The notes below the pieces were generated by a model. It made no database searches. It worked only from the letters and a program-made list of their open reading frames with translations, and was not told the origin of the DNA. Shown piece by piece: positions 2,678-3,853 of a stretch of DNA of 17,041 bases. Source of the DNA: a virus (Duplodnaviria > Heunggongvirae > Uroviricota > Caudoviricetes); the IMG/VR virus record IMGVR_UViG_643348547_000011. One strand, written 5' to 3'. The first letter of the stretch is position 1. Every line of letters starts with the position of its first letter. Position numbers and translations under genes: made by a program.

Positions 2678-3079
2678 AATTCCTCCAAGGGGTCTAATGG
2701 GTGAAACTCTATCACTCATTCAACCCAGAAGGAAATGTTTTGTCTGGATATTTAAACAGTGACTACAACGTAATCTAGCACTAGTGATGCTTTGTTAGGC
2801 ATAGAGAATCATTCTATATACGACTAATGACAGAAAAACAGCAGACAAGTAGTTTGCTCATAAATTAACGCATACTACGTGCCTACGGTTTTCGAGACCG
2901 GTCCAATCATCAAACGAAACATAAAATTAATTCACACTATGAGGAAAAGTATCTTTTTTTACTATGTAAATTCAAAGGATTAGCCTCATTTACCCGATAG
3001 TTTTCTCAACACTACTGGTTGTGAGCCCTTGCAATGTTCATTAATATACGTCTCACAAATAATTCATAGATATTGCAAA

Positions 3080-3853
3080 ATGGATATTACTGAGTTTCCT
3101 TCTGGAGTAATTGAACACCTTGGCTGGTATGTATACCGATTGATTGATCCGAGGGACGGAAGCACCTTCTATGTAGGGAAAGGCAAAGGTAACCGCGTAT
3201 TTGCCCATATGCGCGGTGAAGTGGCAGCGACTGATGATGACGAGTTACTGAGCAACAAGCTAAAGCAAATTAGAGAAATAAGGTTAGCAGGACTTGAGGT
3301 TATCCATGTCATCCATCGACACGGAATGACTGATGAAAAGACGGCGTACGAAGTTGAAGCAGCACTTATTGATGCCTACCCTGGGTTAACGAATATCATG
3401 AATGGGGCTGGCAGCAATGAATTCGGCGCCGCACATGTCAAAGAGTTGATAGCAACATATCAACCCGAAACCATAACATTTCATCATAAAGCATTAATGA
3501 TTTCCGTTAACAGAAGTGCAAAGGATTCAGAGCTTTATGATGCGGTTCGATTTAGCTGGCGCATTAATGTCTCTCGCGCCAGCCAAGCAGAAGTCATTCT
3601 TGCTACTGTAAGGGGGATCGTTCGAGGGGTTTTCATTGCTGATAAATGGCTCAAATCAACACGTGAAAATTTCCCTACGATGAAATACTGGGACGAGGAT
3701 CCGGACTTTGAGGCAACACAAAGTTCTCGCTATGGTTTTGAAGGTCGAGAAGCCCCACCTGAAATAGCAAATCTTTATCTTGGAAAAAAAATCCCAGATG
3801 AATTAAGAAAAAAAGGAGCTATGTCCCCGGTCCGTTACTCACCTAATTTTTGA
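3080..3853 (+). CDS. GIY-YIG nuclease-domain protein with an uncharacterised C-terminal domain
   Basis: ORF track 3029..3853 starts at an alternative TTG; the first in-frame ATG is 3080-3082 (MDITEFPSG...). [29 protein letters not shown] fits the GIY-YIG motif (YVY ... YVG plus the conserved Arg), and a downstream Glu ([10 protein letters not shown]) and Asn (NIMNGAG) are spaced as in GIY-YIG catalytic cores. I cannot assign the C-terminal ~150 aa to any family. No clear Shine-Dalgarno, so the start is uncertain. Confidence 0.6.

Follow-up and report, generated by a model that had tools for sequence, protein, structure and literature searches.

A gene of the CMoRE/PD-T4-3 family, predicted to encode a modification-dependent type IV restriction endonuclease, in the cargo slot of a decayed Escherichia coli prophage

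PD-T4-3 was obtained in the functional selection of Vassallo 2022 (PMC9519451), whose main text leaves it unnamed and mentions only 'a GIY-YIG nuclease'; its attribution to strain ECOR68 was made by Liu et al. (PMC12923530), and Liu 2026 (PMC12923530) renamed it CMoRE. Here we report the analysis of a gene of this family found in a stretch of viral DNA of 17,041 nucleotides (IMG/VR record IMGVR_UViG_643348547_000011), which is called the window below and is always meant at its full length. An earlier note, made from the letters of the window without database searches, had described a standalone GIY-YIG protein next to a restriction-modification (R-M) pair. Three roles had been proposed for it: a single-gene anti-phage nuclease, a modification-dependent, Type IV-like restriction enzyme, or a Vsr-like partner of the neighbouring C5 methylase.

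The mechanism and structure of CMoRE were published between 2022 and 2026. When expressed from its native promoter, the CMoRE of E. coli O157:H7 lowered the efficiency of plating of T2, T4 and T6 by about 1e5 in a non-abortive manner (PMC12923530). The purified enzyme degrades DNA containing 5-hydroxymethylcytosine (5hmC) or glucosyl-hydroxymethylcytosine (5ghmC) and spares DNA containing cytosine (C) or 5-methylcytosine (5mC); restriction extends to T4(hmC) but not to T4(C) (PMC12923530). Two modified cytosines are required, and cleavage follows the pattern CN11/N9G, leaving 2-nt 3' overhangs (PMC12923530). The protein is a dimer-of-dimers tetramer. Its N-terminal domain carries a GIYxY-YIG motif (Y17, Y19, Y31), for which active-site mutants were made, and a 15-residue acidic loop between alpha2 and alpha3 covers the active site; with the loop mutated to 4A, the enzyme is hyperactive, attacks normal DNA and becomes toxic (PMC12923530). 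In the C-terminal domain, the hydroxyl of 5hm-dCTP is hydrogen-bonded to the main chain of Y127. This sensor was published as a distinct fold, with no structural homologue reported by Liu et al., and the inter-domain linker was disordered in the crystals (PMC12923530). As functional comparator the same authors named PvuRts1I (PMC12923530). Two independent studies are in agreement with these results. In its native host NILS69, PD-T4-3 is one of only two active defences and targets Tevenvirinae (bioRxiv 10.1101/2024.12.20.629700). A further member, PD-T4-3Capno, is modification-dependent in vivo and in vitro and cuts T4 DNA as well as Mom-modified Mu DNA (PMC12366544).

Identification of the CMoRE gene

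We compared the protein encoded by the window with family profiles and with the sequences of known structures. The PADLOC model for PD-T4-3 (PDLC04031) matched the whole of it (E 2.4e-140, residues 1-256 aligned to profile positions 1-255/256), and phrog_5356 likewise matched it from end to end, while NCBIfam holds no model for it. In a phmmer search of the sequences of the Protein Data Bank (PDB), it matched entries 9U75/9U8D from E. coli O157:H7 (E 3.7e-172) and 9U7U/9U7Z from E. coli APEC O1 (E 1.1e-150), all deposited as PD-T4-3 5hmC-specific restriction endonucleases. It is identical to the O157:H7 protein (9U75) at 253 of 257 residues (98.4%), and to the APEC O1 protein (9U7U) at 219 of 257 (85.2%). 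On this evidence we estimate at about 95% the probability that the gene is CMoRE/PD-T4-3, that is, a predicted single-gene 5hmC/5ghmC-dependent type IV restriction endonuclease. The activity of this exact allele would follow from its near-identity to these two proteins.

The first two roles proposed by the earlier note, which had held that none was established, are thus on record for the family (PMC9519451, PMC12923530, PMC12366544 and bioRxiv 10.1101/2024.12.20.629700). Moreover, crystal structures and biochemistry are available for the 98.4% identical orthologue. The gene is therefore already known, an ordinary copy of a characterised and crystallised E. coli anti-phage enzyme. For the window its importance is small, as this is a routine case of a defence system already annotated by PADLOC and DefenseFinder. 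For the adjacent restriction gene, PADLOC returned REase_II (E 1.5e-233). The RefSeq name, 'LEM-3-like GIY-YIG domain-containing protein', conceals the known function.

The earlier note had placed the gene at 3029-3853. An intact open reading frame is indeed present at 3029..3853 on the plus strand, the maximal mechanical frame of 274 codons starting from TTG 3029, but its start lies 51 nt too far upstream. The coding sequence of CMoRE is 3080..3853 (plus strand; 257 codons and a stop), starting at ATG 3080 with MDITEFPSG. We rejected TTG 3029 in favour of this ATG on three agreeing lines of evidence: the RefSeq/PGAP gene has these same coordinates (WP_000355484.1, 257 aa), the alignments to the PADLOC and PHROG profiles begin at residue 1 of the 257-residue protein, and MDI.EFP is the N-terminus, with the same Met, of the crystallised orthologues and of all enterobacterial homologues. 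The start codon of the gene is thus corrected by this analysis, and the 51 nt ahead of it are probably 5' leader or promoter-proximal DNA. The parts of the reading frame are as follows.

3029..3079, plus strand: 17 in-frame codons (TTG...AAA) outside the protein; annotation, profiles and homologues start at 3080
3080..3382, plus strand: N-terminal part before the linker, with R39 and E93 invariant
3233..3244, plus strand: acidic autoinhibitory loop DDDE, residues 52-55 (DDDD in O157:H7, DDDE in APEC O1)
3383..3412, plus strand: flexible inter-domain linker, residues 102-111 (predicted local distance difference test below 50 in the AlphaFold2 model)
3413..3850, plus strand: C-terminal modified-cytosine sensor domain, residues 112-257, including Y127

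The description of the protein as a GIY-YIG domain followed by about 150 residues of no recognised family was accurate. Pfam LEM-3_GIY-YIG (PF22945) matched residues 28-110 (E 2.1e-14), and the C-terminal region of about 145 residues matched no Pfam family even at E<=10, whether the domain was searched alone or in 33 family members. The GIYxY-YIG motif reads G15-W-Y17-V-Y19 ... F30-Y31-V-G33. Residues Y17, Y19, Y31, R39, R80, V92, E93, L96 and Y127 are all conserved in the window protein, V92 and L96 being the residues of the oligomerisation interface of the tetramer. In an alignment of 33 homologues, taken from the 6562 clusters of the database built at 90% identity, these key residues were invariant or nearly so at identities down to 55%. 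From their invariance, R39 and E93 are probably the catalytic Arg and Glu; Liu et al. (PMC12923530) describe the catalytic Arg and Glu as conserved, and the assignment to these two residues is ours.

The window protein differs from the O157:H7 protein at four positions (T51A, E55D, Q169K and N197H, from the window to O157:H7). At 55 and 197 the residues of the window protein, E and N, are those of the active APEC O1 protein, and N197 is invariant across the family. Because the family residues are present and the protein agrees with APEC O1 or the consensus at 55 and 197, we filed the gene as a member of CMoRE/PD-T4-3.

Several observations weigh against a functional enzyme of this kind in the window. 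Two of the four substitutions relative to O157:H7 fall within the autoinhibitory loop or next to it. The prophage around the gene shows decay, with an insertion and pseudogenes, and regulation of the gene may have been lost. Expression of CMoRE in the window strain can only be inferred, because 3060-3082 shows no recognisable Shine-Dalgarno sequence ahead of the conserved ATG 3080 (…CATAGATATTGCAAAATG) and because a promoter and terminator scan of 2600-4300 found no sigma-70 promoter on the plus strand matching at least 9/12 positions inside the spacer upstream of the gene. A possible promoter noticed by eye, TTGTGA-17-TAATAT at about 3019-3047, reaches only 8/12 and was not used as evidence. 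The same scan found no terminator after the gene. The 200 bp upstream of the gene fall within 1.18 kb of DNA that shares 94% identity with its counterpart in O157, where the native promoter was functional.

The R-M pair, the spacer and the prophage cargo slot

Upstream of CMoRE the window holds an R-M pair and a spacer.

1..1209, plus strand: EcoRII-type type II restriction endonuclease (Pfam EcoRII-N E 3.9e-61, EcoRII-C E 2.4e-71; PADLOC REase_II as above)
1244..2677, minus strand: EcoRII/Dcm-type C5 cytosine methyltransferase (Pfam DNA_methylase E 4.7e-78 and DNA_meth_N; NCBIfam PRK10458, 927 bits)
2678..3079, no strand: divergent AT-rich spacer between methylase and CMoRE, 402 bp, 35.6% GC against 48.2% for the whole window

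The true start of the methylase is at 2677, with a GGAGG Shine-Dalgarno sequence ahead of it, and the restriction and methylase genes are convergent, separated by 34 bp. The measured length and composition of the spacer bear out the statement that the GIY-YIG gene diverges from the methylase across an AT-rich region of about 400 bp. The functional link to the R-M pair that a shared promoter region had implied is wrong. Of 5426 complete E. coli genomes, 838 (15%) carry the CMoRE gene at a nucleotide identity of at least 95%, and only 244 carry the full block of R-M pair and CMoRE, so that about 70% of carriers are without the R-M pair. In such carriers homology begins at about 2870-2886, some 200 bp upstream of the ATG, and only these proximal 200 bp travel with the gene. 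Two modules therefore meet in the 402-bp spacer, and the promoter of CMoRE presumably lies in the proximal half of the spacer, at about 2870/2886-3079.

The neighbours of the gene also vary. The R-M pair or an AraC-family gene is found upstream, and pinE or a lambdoid tail fibre downstream, so that there is no obligatory partner, and the methylase is not a partner of CMoRE. In O157:H7 DEC4E the gene upstream of CMoRE is of the AraC family and a recombinase remnant lies beside CMoRE; in GN4143 a lambdoid tail fibre follows it. In the same DEC4E sequence (L003:1-4471), a cluster linked to an integrase and annotated as an 'ABC-three component system', a predicted conflict system, is located a few kb away from CMoRE, and this neighbourhood is predicted to be a small defence island of different composition.

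Downstream of CMoRE, the following features were identified.

3917..4057, minus strand: remnant of the pin invertase, 47 codons of the C-terminal helix-turn-helix (PinE residues 138-184; tblastn 77% identity, E 5e-20; PGAP pseudogene)
4253-5278: O-antigen acetyltransferase, 30% GC (Acyl_transf_3; phrog O-acetyltransferase)
12556-13865, minus strand: IS3-family element (IS629/IS1203-like), truncating the tail tape-measure gene
13817-15463, 15742-15912 and 16409-17041, minus strand: region beyond the insertion sequence (IS) element

The invertase that the earlier note had seen beside the gene is the 47-codon pin remnant and not an intact gene. On the prophage side, this remnant delimits the cargo slot. 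Homology of the window to genomes with an intact pinE stops at 4064 (window region 4064-5320). The acetyltransferase stands at the place expected for pin and the invertible tail-fibre segment, and it looks like a serotype-modifying moron. It is followed by tail-fibre, baseplate and tape-measure genes of an e14/SfV-like prophage, which is a dead remnant because the IS element truncates its tape-measure gene. The only Rfam match in the whole window was an ALIL programmed-frameshift pseudoknot at 13414-13530. Beyond the IS element we observed an AIDA-repeat autotransporter pseudogene, a second serine-recombinase fragment (PinE residues 38-94, 67% identity) and a frameshifted ypjCB; this material is a remnant of another island at the ssrA hotspot.

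The region 2720-4260 is 100% identical to E. coli IAI39, CE10, AR_0013 and two others. In IAI39, the window begins 234 bp downstream of ssrA, within a prophage remnant. In strain 15.03CC the identical three-gene cassette adjoins an intact pinE in a more complete prophage, located at a different chromosomal site, and in the e14 prophage of K-12 mcrA is the gene after pinE. These two arrangements agree with the earlier placement of the gene in a defence cargo slot at the position of mcrA. At the pin-distal end of e14/SfV-type prophages, type IV restriction genes (McrA or CMoRE) are interchangeable within the slot, with or without an EcoRII-type R-M pair.

Proposed mechanism and rival explanations

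By its near-identity to the 98.4% identical orthologue, the CMoRE of the window would assemble as a dimer-of-dimers tetramer. The C-terminal domain would bind 5-hydroxymethyl- or glucosyl-hydroxymethyl-cytosine, with Y127 at the site, and would leave C and 5mC unbound. A dimer would read two modified cytosines about 21 bp apart, and the N-terminal GIYxY-YIG domain (Y17/Y19/Y31) would cut between them (CN11/N9G, 2-nt 3' overhangs) with Mg2+ or Mn2+. The acidic loop DDDE, at residues 52-55 over the active site, would exclude ordinary DNA, and host DNA would therefore be spared, including DNA methylated to 5mC by the EcoRII-type methylase. T-even phage DNA would thus be destroyed directly as it enters, without abortive infection. 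The EcoRII R-M pair would be an independent system for unmodified DNA that merely shares the defence cargo slot of the prophage. CMoRE neither binds nor cuts 5mC DNA and can therefore coexist with the EcoRII-type methylase. The two activities are inferred to complement each other, with EcoRII cutting unmodified DNA and CMoRE cutting hmC/ghmC DNA, so that together the two systems would cover both unmodified and hypermodified cytosine DNA.

An extension of this scheme would make the enzyme a broader sensor of several bulky base modifications, such as the Mom-type carbamoylmethyl-adenine of Mu or arabinosyl-hmC, with a prophage role in general defence against hypermodified phages. In its favour, PD-T4-3Capno (48% identity) was selected on Mu and degrades the DNA of that phage, and Liu et al. 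(PMC12923530) reported activity on the arabinosylated DNA of Bas46/47 and described binding of the base by its edge in place of a closed pocket. The activity on Bas46/47 was weak and very mild, however. Among the phenotypes of the E. coli enzymes, the one against T-even phages alone is strong, and restriction in NILS69 and K-12 was confined to Tevenvirinae and did not extend to every genus among them. We consider such a breadth unlikely, but it is by some distance the most plausible of the alternatives.

The Vsr-like role, in which a mismatch-nicking partner of the C5 methylase repairs T:G mismatches arising from 5mC deamination, draws on the adjacency and divergent layout with the Dcm/EcoRII-type methylase and on nothing else. 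It is scarcely credible given that Pfam and NCBIfam returned no Vsr match, the fold being a different one (GIY-YIG), that some 70% of the E. coli genomes carrying the gene are without the methylase cassette, that CMoRE neither binds nor cuts C or 5mC DNA, and that the convergent R and M genes with their 34-bp gap form a complete pair without a third gene. This part of the earlier note is therefore abandoned. A UvrC/Cho fragment or an intron homing endonuclease had been named there as identities that would speak against its reading. Descent from the UvrC/Cho repair nucleases, as a fragment or paralogue with a housekeeping role, has next to no probability: NCBIfam gave no UvrC or Cho match, the other UvrC domains (UvrB-binding, RNase H-like, helix-hairpin-helix) are absent from this protein of 257 residues with its unrelated C-terminal domain, and the gene, present in 15% of E. 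coli genomes, is an accessory one carried by a prophage. A selfish GIY-YIG homing endonuclease resembling I-TevI, spreading its own gene with no role in defence, is also very improbable, if slightly less so. The gene lies outside any intron, intein or conserved host gene, in a prophage cargo slot whose upstream neighbour is variable; an I-TevI-type DNA-binding domain is absent; and experiments on near-identical proteins have demonstrated both defence and dependence on modification. Both candidates were rejected, as only the catalytic fold is held in common. Restriction of 5hmC/5ghmC DNA by a type IV enzyme thus remains our preferred reading.

Comparison with known systems

In the phage collection searched, no close copy of CMoRE was found in temperate phages of E. 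coli; only homologues in jumbo phages were detected, at 47% identity or less. These are full-length homologues (40-47% identity) in Serratia phages Moabite and 2050HW, Pseudomonas phage OBP and Klebsiella phage N1M2, and they carry the annotation of homing nucleases. Two of them were aligned.

L006:2501-3262: CMoRE homologue of Serratia phage Moabite
L007:2492-3250: CMoRE homologue of Pseudomonas phage OBP

In both, the equivalents of Y17, Y19, Y31, R39, E93 and Y127 are kept and the acidic loop is absent (KTKDAS and KTPHS, against DDDE). The jumbo-phage homologues may act in inter-phage competition.

The C-terminal sensor might be a very divergent PUA-like reader (of the EVE/YTH/ASCH type), which would make CMoRE the GIY-YIG branch of a widespread type IV class joining a PUA sensor to a nuclease, the loop-less jumbo-phage versions being possibly weapons against hmC-containing competitors. 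The PUA-like signal for the domain is weak, and we lean slightly away from this placement while regarding it as quite possible. If confirmed on crystal coordinates, it would set CMoRE in a known evolutionary framework. Compared with PUA-superfamily fusions of sensor and nuclease such as VcaM4I (EVE-HNH), CMoRE has no sequence-level match to the Pfam families of the PUA clan; its domain order is reversed and its nuclease is of the GIY-YIG type.

With the CMoRE proteins of O157:H7 and APEC O1, the window protein shares its length of 257 residues, its two-domain layout and all the published catalytic, autoinhibitory, interface and ligand-contact residues. It differs from the O157:H7 protein by the four substitutions given above, and the upstream neighbour is the EcoRII R-M pair here, whereas it is the AraC-family gene in O157:H7 DEC4E. 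PD-T4-3Capno belongs to the same family and resembles CMoRE in its modification-dependent cleavage of T4 DNA and in the loss of activity of its active-site mutants; its reported identity to the original PD-T4-3 is only 48%, and it also cuts Mom-modified Mu DNA, which the E. coli enzymes are not known to do.

McrA (EcoKMcrA) of e14 is likewise a type IV, modification-dependent enzyme encoded at the same position, just beyond pinE. However, McrA is an HNH nuclease that targets 5mC in a CCGG-type context, whereas CMoRE is a GIY-YIG nuclease that ignores 5mC, and no similarity between the two was found by blastp. The enzymes of the PvuRts1I/AbaSI family, which are type IV and specific for 5hmC/5ghmC, act on the same substrate class as CMoRE. 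They cut about 11-13/9-10 nt from the modified cytosine and prefer two sites, a geometry similar to that of CMoRE.
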